Shown here piece by piece: positions 55,590 to 61,060 of a DNA stretch of 64,000 nt; positions within the stretch are counted from its first letter, which is position 1, and every line of letters begins with the position of its first letter. Both the position numbers and the translations under genes were made by a program. Location of the stretch: contig OY970355.1 of the NCBI GenBank assembly GCA_963718525.1, positions 2,336,001 through 2,400,000 of the forward strand, given 5' to 3'. This DNA comes from Candidatus Dormiibacterota bacterium. Its GTDB lineage: Bacteria; Chloroflexota; Dormibacteria; Aeolococcales; Aeolococcaceae. Under the pieces are notes generated by a model. It did not search any database. It was not told the DNA's origin and saw nothing but the letters and a program-made list of their open reading frames with translations.

Positions 55590-57326
55590 GTGAGGTCTCG
55601 GAACGGCGTCAGCGCGACAGCTCTGGCGCTCATCGCGGCCGTGCCGTTCGCCCTGCTGCACACCGGCGCCGCAAGGGCGGCGACGACCCGGGAGGGGATC
55701 GACGTCAGCGCATACCAGGGGTCGATCGCCTGGCACTCGGTGGCGGCCGCCGGGATCTCGTTCGCGTATATCCGTGCGGCGGATGGCGCCGGTTCCCCGG
55801 ACGGGCAGTTCGCGATCAACTGGCGAGGAGCGTCCGCAGCGGGGGTGACCCCCGGGGCATATCTGTTCTACGAGCCGAATCAGAGCGCCGTCGCTCAAGC
55901 CGACCTCCTCATCTCCCAGCTGCGAGCGGTGGGGTTCACCCACGGAGACCTTGTCCCGACGATCGACGTCGAGACCACTGACGGCGAACCCCAGGCGGTG
56001 GTGGTCGCCAACCTCCGCATCATTGTCAACACGGTCAGCGCCGCGATCGGATCGCTGCCCGCCATCTACTGCTCGCCGGCGTGGTGGAGCGGGAACATCA
56101 GCTCGGCGGCCTTCACGCTTGACCCGCTCTGGGTGGCCAACTGGTTCGTGAGCCAGCCGTCGGTGCCCGAGAACAACTGGGGTGGCACCGGCTGGCAGGT
56201 GTGGCAGTACAGCGACGCGGGCAGCGTCCCCGGGATTGCGGGCAGCGTCGACCTCGACCAGGGCGGTGTCCGATCGCTGCCGTATTACGGCTTCCCGGAT
56301 CCTCTTGCGCTGCCGCAGGCGGCAAATGTTGCAGGCAACCCCCAGGCCGTGTCGGATCAGCCGGGGGACGTCAACGTGCTCTGGCGGGGGAGCAACAACC
56401 ACGTCTGGAGCCTCGCATTCCGCAACGGGACGTGGGGGTTGGGATCGACCGACATCAGCGCGGCTGGTGGGACGGCGGCGACGCTCGTCTCGGATCCATC
56501 GGTCGTCTCCTCCGGTCCCGGACAGATTGACGCGTTCTGGGAAGGGGAGGACCACAACCTCTGGTACTCGGCCTTTGCCGGGGGGTGGTTTGGCGACGGA
56601 ACCTGGTCGGCACCCGTGTCGCTCGGGGTCGGACCGCTCGGATCGCAACCCCGGGCCGTGTCGCCCGCCCGCGGCTTCGTCGACGTCTTCTGGAAGGGCT
56701 CCGACGGTGGCCTCTGGGTCGACCGTTACAACGTGGGCTGGAGCGGCGCCATGCCACTGAACACGGGGGCCATCGGCGGGAACCCGGTGGTCGCCAGCGC
56801 CGGCCAGGGATCGGAGACGGTCTTCTGGCGCGACGCGTTCGGTGACCTGTGGTCCGACACCGGCGCCGCGTCGGGGTGGTGGGGTGCCCAGCGCCTGACG
56901 TCCAGCCCGCTGTCGGCTGATCCGTCCGTGAGTGCATCGGGCACGACCATCGACGTCTTCTGGAACAGCGCGGGTGCGCTGTGGCACGGCTCGCTCAACG
57001 GTGCTGTGTGGAGCGGGGTCACCGCACTTGGCACCGAGACCGTCGCCGGCAATCCGTCGGTGGTCGACCTCGCCCCGGGGTCGGTGATCGTCAACTCGCG
57101 TGAGCCCTCGGGGCTCATGGCCTCGTCGCTGTACACGTCGGCGAGCGGCCTCGTGGGCCCGGAGGGGCTGGGGGCCACAGCATCCTCCGACCCGTCATCA
57201 GTCGTGTTCGCCGGTGGCGGCGCCATCGATGTCATCTGGCGATCCGCCACCAACACCCTGTGGGTTGCCCCGGCGTGCCCCGGGTGTGCGGCCCCGGCCA
57301 TTCCCGTCTTCAACCCGGGGGGCTGA
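55590..57326 (+). CDS. Secreted GH25 muramidase with C-terminal seven-repeat beta-propeller (lectin-like)
   Basis: Signal peptide; GIDVSAYQG, IDVE (DxE), LWVANW, WQYS, VDLD; seven (I/V)DVFWxGxDxxLW-type repeats. Confidence 0.88.
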   Translation: MRSRNGVSATALALIAAVPFALLHTGAARAATTREGIDVSAYQGSIAWHSVAAAGISFAYIRAADGAGSPDGQFAINWRGASAAGVTPGAYLFYEPNQSAVAQADLLISQLRAVGFTHGDLVPTIDVETTDGEPQAVVVANLRIIVNTVSAAIGSLPAIYCSPAWWSGNISSAAFTLDPLWVANWFVSQPSVPENNWGGTGWQVWQYSDAGSVPGIAGSVDLDQGGVRSLPYYGFPDPLALPQAANVAGNPQAVSDQPGDVNVLWRGSNNHVWSLAFRNGTWGLGSTDISAAGGTAATLVSDPSVVSSGPGQIDAFWEGEDHNLWYSAFAGGWFGDGTWSAPVSLGVGPLGSQPRAVSPARGFVDVFWKGSDGGLWVDRYNVGWSGAMPLNTGAIGGNPVVASAGQGSETVFWRDAFGDLWSDTGAASGWWGAQRLTSSPLSADPSVSASGTTIDVFWNSAGALWHGSLNGAVWSGVTALGTETVAGNPSVVDLAPGSVIVNSREPSGLMASSLYTSASGLVGPEGLGATASSDPSSVVFAGGGAIDVIWRSATNTLWVAPACPGCAAPAIPVFNPGG

Positions 57327-57384
57327 CGCCGGGATCCGGTCCGTCCAGAGGGAGGGAGCCGCATCCGCTTGGGCGCCTCTTAAA

Positions 57385-57412
57385 GCTCCTGATAATGCAT
57401 ATTCTCACGATC
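57385..57412. other. dif-like Xer recombination site (candidate)
   Basis: GCTCCTGATAA-TGCATA-TTCTCACGATC: 11-6-11 architecture, imperfect inverted arms, AT-rich, intergenic, near a Xer-type recombinase. Confidence 0.55.
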
Positions 57413-57558
57413 TAGAGCTGGCAGCCCACCTCAGGATCTGTGGAGACCTCTCTCCTCAGTGCGGTGATTCGTTGAAACCCGTGATGACTCGCACACGGCC
57501 CGGTAGCGCTGACGTGCGGGCGCCGTCGAGTCCAGGGAGGCGCGGCTAGGCTCGCGCC

Positions 57559-58638
57559 ATGGATTACGTGCCAGGCCGCTCCTGGAGCCTCGGGCGCATC
57601 CCGGCGCTGGATGGTCTCCGCGGGCTGGCGATCCTGCTGGTGCTGATCCTGCACCTCGGGGTGCCGTTCACCAACGGCGCCGGAGCCGCCGGTGTGACGA
57701 TCTTCTTCGTCCTCTCGGGCTTCCTGATCACCAGCCTGCTGGTCCGCGGGCTGCAGGGCAGCGGCCTCGGCTACCTCAGGACCTTCTATATCCGGCGGGT
57801 CCGACGGCTCTTCCCGGCAGTGGTTGCGCTGCTGGCAATCGTCACCTGTGTCGACCTTGTCACCGGGGATCTCGGTCATATCGCCGGACGCGTGCTCCCA
57901 GCGCTTTTCTATGTCTACAACTGGGTCTGTGTCACCACGTCGGTCGGCGGCGATCCCATCGGCCAGGCGTGGTCGCTGTCCATCGAGGAACAGTTCTACG
58001 TGCTGTGGCCGTTCGTGCTGCTCCTGGCCCTGCGTCGCGGCGGTCCGGAGCTCGCGCTGCGCGTGGCCGCGATCGGCGCGGCCGCGGCCCTTGCCGACCG
58101 CCTCGTCCTGCTTGGCATGCACGACTCGATCGCCCGGATCTATTTCGCCAGCGACACCAACGCGCTGCCGCTCATGGTTGGGTGCGCGCTCGCGTTGGCG
58201 ATCGGTCAGGGCAAGCTGCCGCGGGTTTCGCTGCTGGCGTCGGCATTCGCCGGAGTCGCGCTCCTCGGTGTCTGCGTGGACACGGCCTACGGCGCGGGTC
58301 TTGATTTCCTGCTCATCAGCCCGGTGGTCGTCACCGCGGCCAGCGCGGTGCTCATCGCCCGGATCGTGACGGCCGGGGGTGGCGCGGTCTTCACGCTGGC
58401 CCCGGCGCGGGCGCTCGGACGGGTCTCGTACTCACTCTATCTCTGGCAGACACCGGTGATCGTCTGGGGCGACGTCTGGCTCAGTGGAGCTTCGCTCGTG
58501 GTACGCGTTGTGCTGCTCGGGGGCGCTGCACTCGCCTGTGCGCTCGCCTCGTACTGGTTTGTCGAAGCGCCGATCCGACGCCTCGGCAGCCGCGCGAAGC
58601 CCGCGCCGGCGATGGCGCAACCGGCGGTCCACGCCTGA
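57559..58638 (+). CDS. Acyltransferase-3 (OafA/OatA-like) membrane O-acyltransferase
   Basis: LDGLRGLAILLV, GVTIFFVLSGFLIT, FYIRRVRRLFP, WSLSIEEQFY, SYSLYLWQ, SYWFVEAP. Confidence 0.93.
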   Translation: MDYVPGRSWSLGRIPALDGLRGLAILLVLILHLGVPFTNGAGAAGVTIFFVLSGFLITSLLVRGLQGSGLGYLRTFYIRRVRRLFPAVVALLAIVTCVDLVTGDLGHIAGRVLPALFYVYNWVCVTTSVGGDPIGQAWSLSIEEQFYVLWPFVLLLALRRGGPELALRVAAIGAAAALADRLVLLGMHDSIARIYFASDTNALPLMVGCALALAIGQGKLPRVSLLASAFAGVALLGVCVDTAYGAGLDFLLISPVVVTAASAVLIARIVTAGGGAVFTLAPARALGRVSYSLYLWQTPVIVWGDVWLSGASLVVRVVLLGGAALACALASYWFVEAPIRRLGSRAKPAPAMAQPAVHA

Positions 58639-58696
58639 GGCGTCGGGTGCCGCGGCTGGTTCGATTGAGACGGGCTCGCTCGATAGGCTTGCCGTG

Positions 58697-59506
58697 ATGG
58701 AGAGCAACGCGCGCCTGACAAAGGCAGGAGGCCCGGCCGTCAGCGCCTTCCTGGCGACGGCATCGGCGGCGTGGCGGAGCGCGCTGGGTCGGAACCTCAG
58801 CGGGGTCTACGTCTCCGGGTCGCTGTCGACCGGCGCCTTCAACCTGCGGACCAGCGACATCGACGTGCTCGTGACGACGCGCGCGCAGACCGACGCCGCC
58901 GCCAACGAGCGCATCGCCGAGCTCCACCTCGCGATGCTCGGCTGGGGCGGTGGGCGCTGGGCCGAACGGCTGGAGGTGAGCTTCGTACCGGCGAGGGCAC
59001 TGCGAGCGCCCGGTGTCCCTGAGCTCGCGGTTCTGGAGCTGCACCCGGACGAAGGCTTCAACGTCAAGCATCTTGGCGCGGACTTCCTGATCCAGAAACG
59101 GATGCTCCGCGAGTACGGCATCACGCTCATCGGGCCGAAGATCGCCAGGATCGTCGCCCCGGTGACCGCGGGTGAGCTTCGCGAGGCTGTCATTGGGAAC
59201 CTGCGCGAGTGGTGGAGGCCGCAACTCGAATTTCCAGGGCAGTTCCTCAATCGCGGCTACCAGGCGTACGCCGTGCTGACGATGTGCCGGGCGCTCTGCC
59301 TTCTGACGACCGGTGACCTGGTGACCAAGCCGGAGGCCGCCGCCTGGGCCCTGCGCGGCCCATATCTCGACGTCTGGCACCCGCTGATCGAATCCGCGAT
59401 CGCCTACCCCGGCGGGGCGCAACCGGACGAGCGGCGCGCAACTCTCGATTTCATCCGCTTCGCGCTCGATGAGGCCGGTATCGGTCACGAGGCTCCAAGC
59501 TCCTGA
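58697..59506 (+). CDS. Nucleotidyltransferase, AadA/ANT(3'')-like with DUF4111-type C-terminus
   Basis: GVYVSGSLSTGAFN..TSDIDVLV (GS..DxD), LEVSF, YAVLTMCRAL..G..VTKPEAAAWAL. Confidence 0.8.
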   Translation: MESNARLTKAGGPAVSAFLATASAAWRSALGRNLSGVYVSGSLSTGAFNLRTSDIDVLVTTRAQTDAAANERIAELHLAMLGWGGGRWAERLEVSFVPARALRAPGVPELAVLELHPDEGFNVKHLGADFLIQKRMLREYGITLIGPKIARIVAPVTAGELREAVIGNLREWWRPQLEFPGQFLNRGYQAYAVLTMCRALCLLTTGDLVTKPEAAAWALRGPYLDVWHPLIESAIAYPGGAQPDERRATLDFIRFALDEAGIGHEAPSS

Positions 59507-59510
59507 TAAT
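59497..59510. repeat. 14-bp exact direct repeat of the dif-like left arm
   Basis: AAGCTCCTGATAAT at 57383-57396 and 59497-59510. Confidence 0.9.
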
Positions 59511-59518
59511 ACGGGGGC

Positions 59519-60568
59519 ATGGCTGCTCGCGTCCGCCCCACCCGGCGTCCAACCGCGCCCCATGCACGCCGCGGTCCGGCATGGGCGTCGAACGTCCCCG
59601 GGCCGCGCAACTCACTGCCCGACCAGGTCGAACAGTTCCTTGACTGGCTTCGCGTGCAGGGCAACCGGCCGTCGACCACCGTCCGGGCATATCGCCAGGA
59701 TCTCGCCAAGTTCGTCGCATATCTGCGCACGCGTCCGCGGGGCGACGTCCTGCTGGCCGGGGTGGATCGACCGCTCCTGCGCCGCTACCAGATCGAGCTG
59801 GCTGATGTGCTGCCGAACCCGCGGTCCCGCGCGCGGGCGCTCGTTGCGTTGCGCCGTTTTCTCGGCTATGCGTATGACGAAGGCTGGGTCACGGCGGAGT
59901 TGAGCCGCCAGGTGACGGTGCCACGCTACGTGGTGGGCGATCCGCATCCGGTGCCCACCGACCACGTGCCACGCCTGCTCGCCGCCCTCCCCAGGGAGAC
60001 CTTGCGCGACCGCCGTGACCGTGCGCTCATCCACCTGCTCTTGAGCACCGGCTGCCGGATCGCCGAAGCCTGTGGCCTCGACCGCGGCGACATCCATCGC
60101 GAGGGCTTCCGAGTTCTCGGCAAAGGTGGCAAATACAGAACTGTGTACTGCACGGATGATGCGTTCGCCGCCGTTGACGATTATCTCAAGATGCGCGGCC
60201 CCGACCCCTCCCCTGCTCTGTTCATCAGCGTCGCCCGCGCCGACGTCCCCCAGGGACATGCCCTTCCCCACAACCGCCTGACCACCGATGGTGCGCGGCG
60301 GGCACTGAGCGCGCTGCGGCAGCGCATGGGTGTCGATCCGGAGATGTTCGAGCTGTTCAGCGATCTCCGCTCCCCGCATGCGGCCCGGCACACTGCCGCC
60401 ACGACGCTCCTGGAGGCGACTGACGGCGACGTCCGCCTGGTCCAGGAGGTGCTCGGGCACGCAACCCTCGAGACGCTCAAGGTCTACACCGAGATCACCG
60501 ATCGGCGCAAACGTGAGGCATACCGCCGGCTTGGTGACTACCTCCACGACGTGGCGGGCCGCGACTGA
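59519..60568 (+). CDS. XerC/D-family tyrosine recombinase
   Basis: SAM-like N-domain (TVRAYRQDL..F, ALVALRRFLGY); catalytic R (TGCRIAE), K (GKGGK), HxxR (PHAARH), H (LGH), Y (KVYT). Confidence 0.92.
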   Translation: MAARVRPTRRPTAPHARRGPAWASNVPGPRNSLPDQVEQFLDWLRVQGNRPSTTVRAYRQDLAKFVAYLRTRPRGDVLLAGVDRPLLRRYQIELADVLPNPRSRARALVALRRFLGYAYDEGWVTAELSRQVTVPRYVVGDPHPVPTDHVPRLLAALPRETLRDRRDRALIHLLLSTGCRIAEACGLDRGDIHREGFRVLGKGGKYRTVYCTDDAFAAVDDYLKMRGPDPSPALFISVARADVPQGHALPHNRLTTDGARRALSALRQRMGVDPEMFELFSDLRSPHAARHTAATTLLEATDGDVRLVQEVLGHATLETLKVYTEITDRRKREAYRRLGDYLHDVAGRD

Positions 60569-60604
60569 GGCCGAGCAGGTGATCCGGGTGGCGATGTCCG
60601 CCGG

Positions 60605-61060
60605 CTATGGCCGCCAGGTGTTGCCGAGCACGCGCACCGCTCCGGCGCCGTCCTCCTCACAGCACGCGAGCAGCTCGGCGCCGATCGGTGGGTACATCTC
60701 GAGCTCGGCCAGCGCCCGGAGCGGGTGCCATCTCGCCTCACGGAGCGACTTGTCGTCAGCGCCGACCTCGAGGGTGCCGGCGCGCACGATCCCGGCGTAC
60801 ACGGCGTTGACGATGTGGCGGCCCCCGGGCTTCGGATCGATCGCTTCGCACACCAGCAGCAGACGGCCTATCTCGACGGTGTAACCGGTCTCTTCGAGGA
60901 GCTCTCGAGTGGCGGCAGCGACCATGGTCTCACCGGCGTCGACACCACCACCCGGCACGAGCCAGTAGGAGCGGCCGGCCTTTTCGTGCCGGACGAGGAG
61001 CACCTCACCCTCACGCCAGACGAGGACGCCGACGCGGAGGCGAATGGCGCGCTCGCTCAC
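60605..61060 (-). CDS. NUDIX hydrolase
   Basis: Intact Nudix box PGGGVDAGETMVAAATRELLEETGY. Confidence 0.92.
   Translation of the reverse strand: MSERAIRLRVGVLVWREGEVLLVRHEKAGRSYWLVPGGGVDAGETMVAAATRELLEETGYTVEIGRLLLVCEAIDPKPGGRHIVNAVYAGIVRAGTLEVGADDKSLREARWHPLRALAELEMYPPIGAELLACCEEDGAGAVRVLGNTWRP

Follow-up and report, generated by a model that had tools for sequence, protein, structure and literature searches.

A candidate single-recombinase Xer/dif system at the chromosome terminus of Dormibacteria, read from comparative sequence analysis

In E. coli and most bacteria, the XerC/XerD pair of recombinases acts on dif together with FtsK. Few Xer systems are known to operate with a single recombinase (XerS, XerH, XerA, and XerL), and each of them has informed us about the order of strand exchange and about FtsK control without a XerC/XerD pair. 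XerS of streptococci and lactococci is one recombinase with a linked site, difSL (excerpts of PMC1914069 and PMC5357621), and difSL is described as a 31-bp site with an 11-bp centre (excerpts of PMC5357621). Helicobacter and Campylobacter carry one chromosomal Xer, XerH, and its cognate difH, according to excerpts of PMC3325230 and PMC5241119. The XerA/dif system of archaea uses a single recombinase on a site of the 28-bp type (excerpts of PMC5357621). In Legionellales, XerL acts as a single recombinase at the terminus, on a dif whose arms form an inverted repeat, and experiments have found it both necessary and sufficient; sequence homology does not reveal XerL as a Xer orthologue, and the LME-1 insertion in Legionella is preceded by an intact dif and followed by a modified one (excerpts of PMC9765430).

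The locus described here lies in a closed, single-contig genome of Candidatus Dormiibacterota (3,336,189 bp, 66.3% G+C). What we call the window is the whole stretch of DNA that was analysed, 64,000 nucleotides corresponding to bases 2,336,001-2,400,000 of this genome. The "phylum" of the taxonomy used here is a large group with more than 50 families, which we take to mean that Dormibacteria sit inside Chloroflexota. The site is a 28-bp core at window positions 57385..57412 on the + strand, with the left arm GCTCCTGATAA, the centre TGCATA and the right arm TTCTCACGATC, all letters being read directly. It is intergenic, between the end of a GH25 ORF at 57326 and the start of an acyltransferase ORF at 57559. 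The two 11-nt arms flanking the 6-bp centre are complementary at 8 of 11 positions and differ at the other 3. When each arm gains one base per end (AGCTCCTGATAAT vs. AGATCGTGAGAAT), the pairing becomes 10/13, which reproduces the count in the initial annotation, where the arms were called inverted copies of each other. The sequence is as described there, the interval 57383-57413 being the core plus flanking bases. Compared with the E. coli dif sequence quoted in the same annotation, the spacer is indeed one base off (TGCATA vs. TGTATA), and the right arm, which was said to be unlike a XerD arm, matches the quoted XerD arm at 4 of 11 positions.

Inverted repeats of the 11-6-11 layout with at least 8/11 pairing occur 10,372 times in the genome, and 20 repeats of this class also have an equally A+T-rich core. 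The inverted symmetry alone is thus within chance, and the case for the site rests on its conservation, single copy, and position. The 28-mer is present once in the genome, with a second match absent even at up to 8 mismatches. No degenerate second dif was found between dif and xer at up to 11 mismatches in the window, nor in this interval at up to 4 mismatches per 13-nt arm. A canonical dif at another place in the genome would have spoken against the annotation; the ATAA-N6-TTAT signature of many dif sites has zero occurrences genome-wide. A Rfam scan of 56500-58500 at E≤1 gave as its sole match a chance lncRNA elsewhere, and the window contains no tRNA genes.

The site is strongly conserved in the genus of the source genome (g1). 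Allowing up to 3 mismatches, it was found in 40 of 42 genomes, source genome included (once in 39 and twice in one MAG), and a reversed-pattern control gave no matches in the same 42 genomes. Completeness is 79% and 71% in the two genomes that gave no match. Among the 41 places, all listed within 2 differences of the 28-mer, 30 are exact, 10 are changed only at positions 27-28, and one carries T9→G. Twenty-six contiguous bases, including the non-palindromic centre, are therefore near-invariant in the genus, with T9→G at one place as their sole change. In the collection of species-representative genomes, the exact 28-mer was found at 30 loci, 28 of them labelled Candidatus Dormibacter(ae)ota/Dormiibacterota, one Acidiferrales and one Saccharimonadales. 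The latter two contigs (L049 and L061), each with the exact site and a linked xer, are probably mis-binned or mislabelled Dormibacteria. An ungapped comparison of 31 loci delimits the full conserved block as AAA, the 28-mer, and TAGA (57382..57416, + strand); these AAA and TAGA bases are all that the flanks have in common, and the sequence outside is not conserved. Because the 31 loci were chosen by exact match, an identical core is expected and only its contrast with the flanks is informative here. In a soil run, a contig from a co-occurring relative likewise matches the window only over 57383-57416, with flanks that are unlike on both sides. In the MAG that has the site on two contigs (L047 and L053), the flanks are near-identical and one indel apart; this double site probably reflects strain variants binned together and not two dif in one chromosome. 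A 3-mismatch match in G078, a 1.5-Mb genome that belongs to a different family within the phylum, lacks a xer gene within 5 kb and was set aside as probably due to chance. The phylum-wide site search, like the tallies of Xer identity in the genus and of the 61-genome class survey given below, includes the unpublished genomes G036, G027, G032, G230, and G280, and none of the other statements made here depends on these five.

The xer gene (59519..60568, + strand) encodes a 349-aa Xer-family tyrosine recombinase (PF00589, 91.9 bits; PF02899, 39.2 bits) with a SAM-like N-terminal domain and a catalytic domain of the phage-integrase type. Its catalytic set R180, K205, H287, R290, H314, and Y323 is complete and aligns with that of E. 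coli XerD (1a0p). The protein is 87-93% identical in 22 of 24 sampled genomes of the genus; in the remaining two, xer is in two pieces (G006) or is present as a copy that contains stop codons and is either diverged or broken (G008). It scores 174.8 bits with the NCBIfam XerC model (cut-off 335.15) and 154.4 bits with the XerD model (cut-off 329.6), both below threshold, and its 164.3 bits with the generic Xer model are also below the cut-off. In a survey of 61 genomes of the class, none was above the XerD cut-off and many had one strong Xer match. Among 14 control genomes, no more than 4 exceeded the strict XerD cut-off, which makes the absence of a canonical XerD as judged by this cut-off weak evidence. 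The genome contains seven full-length tyrosine recombinases including the Xer of the window, plus fragments. The initial annotation had spoken of a lone Xer and proposed a count of xer genes. One conserved Xer-type gene was counted, and "lone" holds in the sense that this is the only conserved Xer-like gene, but not literally, since six other full-length tyrosine recombinases are present.

The site and xer travel together. In 29 of the 30 exact loci, xer lies 0.9-2.1 kb from the site, on a constant side and strand with the site upstream, and at the thirtieth locus the contig stops 870 bp past the site, before xer. The 28-mer was thus found beside xer orthologues in the genus, where the annotation had suggested looking for it, and variants were found in other genera. 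In genus g6, the site GCTCCTGAGAA-TGCATA-TTCTCACGAAC is 15 nt upstream of xer, and in g10, AGTCCTGATAA-TGCATA-TTCTCACGATC is 31 nt upstream. The g8 site, ACTACTGATAA-TGCGTC-TTCTCACGATC, precedes xer by 0.9 kb. Longer distances are seen in g128 (ACTCCTGATAA-TGTATC-TTATCAGGAAC/G, 2.3 and 4.9 kb upstream), g9 (ACTCCTGATAA-GGCATC-TTATCGGGAAC, 5.3 kb upstream) and g131 (TCATGATAA-TGCATA-TTATCATGA in genome G291, with perfectly palindromic arms, 9.7 kb upstream); in g7, xer and the site are on separate contigs. Near-perfect or perfect palindromic arms occur in sister genera. An inner arm position co-varies between the two arms, being either GATAA/TTATC or GAGAA/TTCTC. Such a concerted change of both arms is what would be predicted if one protein reads both of them.

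Related sites were also found outside these genera. Three of 5 loci in family f5 have a different palindrome with the g128 centre, ACGTCGTAAAT-TGTATC-TTTTACGACGT, at 1.2-1.6 kb upstream of xer, and family f3 has a related site 3.9 kb upstream of xer in two loci. In family f2, whose Xer is 40-44% identical, 13 loci searched out to 6 kb from xer gave no related site, and a palindrome-pattern search of the closed f2 genome G037 gave no dif candidate. In 12 of the 13 loci (L076-L087), the f2 xer is followed after ~1.9 kb by a tRNA-Pro(GGG) gene. This was considered as a mark of a tRNA-linked integrase and rejected, as it represents synteny and not adjacency and is absent in the window. Three loci of family f4 (L129:7783, L136:8954, and L135:9136) share a G+C-rich perfect hairpin, AGGCCGGAATC-GTATTC-GAATCCGGCCT, 2-4 kb downstream of xer. 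Candidate identities for this hairpin are a terminator, a repeat element, and the dif of f4.

We examined where the site lies on the chromosome. In genome coordinates, dif is at 2,393,385 and dnaA at 959,047, which gives unequal replichores of 1.43 and 1.90 Mb measured from dnaA. A coding-strand walk, built from 2017 crude ORFs picked by codon-position G+C and covering 73% of the genome, has its minimum at 861,118 and its global maximum at 2,396,568, which is the last base of xer and 3 kb from dif. Genes are co-oriented with replication at 57.5% and 58.4% on the two replichores. The forward-minus-reverse walk of GGGGGA, the core common to strand-skewed 8-mers that were picked only from regions distant from the site, peaks at 2,392,385, 1 kb from dif, and the walk of the narrower motif [GT]GGGGGA[GC] peaks at 2,374,563. 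The positions of the coding-strand and GGGGGA maxima are in agreement with the proposal that the site marks the terminus. The cumulative GC skew is weak, with a broad minimum at ~1.0-1.2 Mb and a maximum at 2,452,000. The flip of the skew that had been expected at the site thus occurs near it but not exactly there, and with its maximum 59 kb away, GC skew as a single marker is only approximate. In G291, the 400 kb around the site contain [GT]GGGGGA[GC] at a ratio of 33:17 on the left and 16:43 on the right; the walk maxima are 2.4-3.3 kb from its site, and GC skew makes no turn at the site within this stretch.

A full FtsK is encoded 21 kb from dif, outside the window (C1:2413891-2416266). It has the 4TM, alpha, motor, and gamma domains (PF01580, 196 bits; PF17854, 86.4 bits; PF09397, the gamma domain, 84 bits) and is the only full FtsK in the genome. 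In other bacteria, FtsK is oriented by the motifs GGGNAGGG, GAAGAAG, and GAGAAGGG. In this genome, GGGNAGGG and GAAGAAG show little or no bias (54% and 47% on the leading strand, respectively), and GAGAAGGG is 61% leading with only 97 copies and a z of 2.1. The motif GG[AG]GGAG is on the leading strand in 64% of cases genome-wide (771:429) vs. an overall G-over-C excess of 0.7%. The bias of the skewed motif is modest (62-67%), and because the motif resembles a Shine-Dalgarno sequence, part of the bias may mirror gene orientation; it marks the terminus either way.

Two boxes of this kind flank the site. The left purine-rich box, AGGGAGGGAG, is at 57349..57358 on the + strand, 26 nt from the left arm. 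The right box is at 57447..57456, 34 nt from the right arm; it reads CCTCTCTCCT on the + strand and is purine-rich on the - strand. Both point at dif and thus converge on it, and boxes here are of the GAGGAGAG/GGGGAGGG type. Among g1 flanks, 48 of 59 contain a 10-mer of 9 or more purines whose end is 30-44 nt away from the arm, as do 8 of 15 flanks from other genera, compared to 2-3% in more distant 15-nt bins. The box keeps its position although the sequence around it is not conserved. Purine boxes were not evident in families f5 and f3. Since the boxes belong to the genome-wide class of leading-strand-biased GG[AG]GGAG motifs, our best guess is that they may orient or load FtsK.

A third feature is a copy of the left arm, AGCTCCTGATAAT, at 59498..59510 (+ strand), which ends 8 nt before the ATG of xer. 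In a genome search with up to 1 mismatch, this 13-mer was found exactly twice, in the left arm of dif and here. In 29 of 31 g1 loci, 7-10 nt separate the arm copy from the start of xer; the exceptions are L044, and L053, whose contig ends first. The copy is also present in g8. It is absent from g9 and g128, and likewise from g6 and g10, where xer directly adjoins a complete dif. At window position 59513, in the short stretch that separates the arm copy from the ATG, a G run differs by one base in contigs of three soil runs, which we regard as strain variation.

The genes between dif and xer are variable. In the window, the slot starts with an Acyltransferase_3 gene (57559..58638, + strand; PF01757, 93.3 bits), which is found only in the source genome among 30 loci. 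It is followed by a gene for an AadA_C/NTP_transf_2-like nucleotidyltransferase (58697..59506, + strand; PF13427, 37.7 bits), the start of which is uncertain, the longest ORF beginning at 58484. The AadA_C-like nucleotidyltransferase is between dif and xer in all 30 g1 loci and was not found near xer in other genera. A GNAT acetyltransferase is additionally present in 16 of the 30 loci, and the g8 interval contains instead a gene like that of a beta-carbonic anhydrase (L088:5265-5816). An integron was considered and rejected: the Xer scores 42.6 bits with the integron integrase model TIGR02249 (cut-off 265), xer lies downstream of the variable genes in the same orientation and is not divergent from them, and no repeated attC-like site was found between the variable genes. 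The bracket formed by dif and the arm copy resembles the dif pair of Legionella LME-1, an analogy that suggests Xer-mediated insertions beside dif. A simple exchange between two arms does not fit, because what is retained on the xer side is a left arm without its right counterpart. No excision or insertion joints between dif and the arm copy were seen over 56400-60700 in the data of 4 soil runs, which consist of contigs and so drop rare forms. The arm copy may equally be an operator through which xer regulates itself. A consensus scan of 57200-59700 called no sigma-70-type promoter. The TGATAAT within the half-site was considered as a -10 box for a leaderless xer mRNA and was not retained, since the scan called none; it remains speculation.

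Taken as a module, the Dormibacteria locus is similar to XerS/difSL in having one recombinase with a linked site (adjacent in g6 and g10, at 0.9-2.1 kb in g1) and in being lineage-specific. It differs in its 28-bp site with a 6-bp centre and in the Xer protein, which scores 70.7 bits with the XerS model NF003462 (cut-off 267). With XerL/dif it shares the single recombinase, the inverted-repeat arms and the location at the terminus, and its dif plus arm copy is reminiscent of the intact and modified dif of LME-1. Unlike XerL, the Dormibacteria protein is plainly XerC/D-like, and its putative system is read here from sequence comparison. One Xer with its dif is also the arrangement of XerH/difH, although the 5 PDB sequences that matched at E≤1e-10 include no XerH chain, and E. 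coli XerD is the best of them. The 11-6-11 layout, the A+T-rich inner arm ends and centre, the one copy at the terminus and the FtsK gamma domain are as in XerC/XerD-dif-FtsK, and the protein is closest to the XerC and XerD models. In contrast to that system, there is one conserved recombinase, both equivalog cut-offs are missed, and the arms are related and not of two kinds. XerA, which likewise pairs a single recombinase with a site of the 28-bp type, is distinguished by score (121.6 bits with NF040815, cut-off 220) and by the bacterial host with FtsK.

These comparisons led us to the reading that the 28-bp site is very probably the chromosome dimer-resolution dif, with the Xer of 59519-60568 as the only Xer acting on it. 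By its scores the protein is outside the XerC/XerD, XerS, XerA, and integron classes, and it appears to work as the single-recombinase systems do. Most likely this would be a further lineage-specific single-recombinase dif system beside XerS, XerH, XerA, and XerL. The initial proposal of a symmetric dif for the 59519 recombinase is supported, and the near-perfect and perfect palindromic arms of the sister genera strengthen it. From the sequence features described above we infer that Xer binds both arms and is catalytically active, that the reaction depends on FtsK, and that it serves to resolve dimers. In the proposed mechanism, each dif copy would carry two Xer monomers on its two related 11-bp arms. 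In a dimeric chromosome, two dif copies would be synapsed at the septum, and a Xer tetramer would exchange strands across the 6-bp centre TGCATA. The polarity of the site would come from its asymmetric centre and, in g1, from the arm differences. FtsK is predicted to move toward dif along the polar G-rich motifs and then to switch the reaction on. A non-conserved helper among the six other full-length tyrosine recombinases is possible.

If such a second protein were a full partner, dif would be served by two recombinases in the manner of XerC/XerD. The differences at 3 of 11 positions between the g1 arms and the supply of six other full-length tyrosine recombinases are compatible with this explanation. 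The most Xer-like of the six (C1:1500773) scores 107 bits with the XerC model, 102 with the XerD model and 154 with the XerA model. This protein is not conserved, however: in the genus its best identity is at most 57%, it occurs in 0-3 copies, and 11 of 41 genomes have no match at E≤1e-30. The palindromic or near-palindromic arms of the sister genera and the many class genomes with a single strong Xer match also argue against two recombinases, and we regard this explanation as improbable. A different concern is that the palindrome could be an operator, bound by a transcription factor or by an autoregulator, for the downstream genes and xer, and not a recombination site at all. Palindromes are typical of operators, 29 of 31 g1 loci have the arm copy just ahead of the xer start codon, and the entire site falls within the upstream region of xer in g6 and g10. 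For an operator, however, 26 contiguous invariant bases that include a non-palindromic centre would be unusual. The site is also kept where xer is 5-10 kb away or on another contig, it coincides with a switch of strand polarity in two genera, and the 57200-59700 scan called no sigma-70-type promoter. We therefore consider an operator hardly credible as the explanation of the site.

Alternatively, the site could be an att site or the boundary of an integrated mobile element, with the Xer as the integrase of the element and the interval genes as its cargo. The 13-nt direct repeat of the left arm does bracket the 2.1-kb interval, the genes within vary as cargo would (the nucleotidyltransferase alone, with GNAT, or with Acyltransferase_3, and the beta-carbonic anhydrase in g8), and the intact upstream and modified downstream dif that LME-1 leaves in Legionella, as described in excerpts of PMC9765430, provide a precedent. 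Against an element, essentially all genomes of the genus have the site and the recombinase, always in a single syntenic location in the terminus, and the terminus position is fixed in all closed genomes. The full site abuts xer in g6 and g10 with no cargo, and a second full site is absent from the genome. The core was not found in viral contigs, and among plasmid-borne relatives the identity does not exceed 35%. A mobile element would account for the interval and not for the site, and as an explanation of the site it is very unlikely.

The reading of a chromosomal dif with one Xer can be extended to the accessory features, although we offer the extension only as a tentative and rather unlikely possibility. 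In this family, the terminus might be a composite module of ~130 bp with dif as its core, in which the convergent boxes, each at a constant distance of ~30 nt, would serve to load FtsK directly on Xer-dif or to orient it there, the half-site before xer would let Xer set its own level, and the bracket of dif and half-site would be a Xer-made slot. Depending on the lineage, the slot would have captured different genes whose products modify small molecules (nucleotidyltransferase, GNAT, acyltransferase, and carbonic anhydrase). Gene modules flanked by dif are known on Acinetobacter plasmids. If the composite module exists, its slot would be a chromosomal counterpart of those plasmid modules.

A literature search, exclusive of supplements, found no description of Xer/dif in Dormibacterota. 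The sole report on Chloroflexi that we found, by Kono in 2011, reportedly covered three Dehalococcoides. The purine boxes, the arm copy and the variable genes have no mention in the excerpts of PMC5357621 and PMC9765430. The system would thus be of a known kind, with a lineage, a site sequence, and three accessory features that neither the search for Xer/dif in this lineage nor these excerpts showed. For an uncultured soil class without genetics, the site would provide an anchored terminus, against which MAG assemblies and replichore structure can be checked even with a weak GC skew. Nature also supplies a graded set of dif sites, from perfectly symmetric to asymmetric arms and apparently served by one recombinase family, as material on how asymmetry directs catalysis.

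Directly upstream of dif lies a GH25 muramidase-like gene (55590-57326), in which the GH25 domain is followed by ~350 residues of W/G-rich repeated segments.
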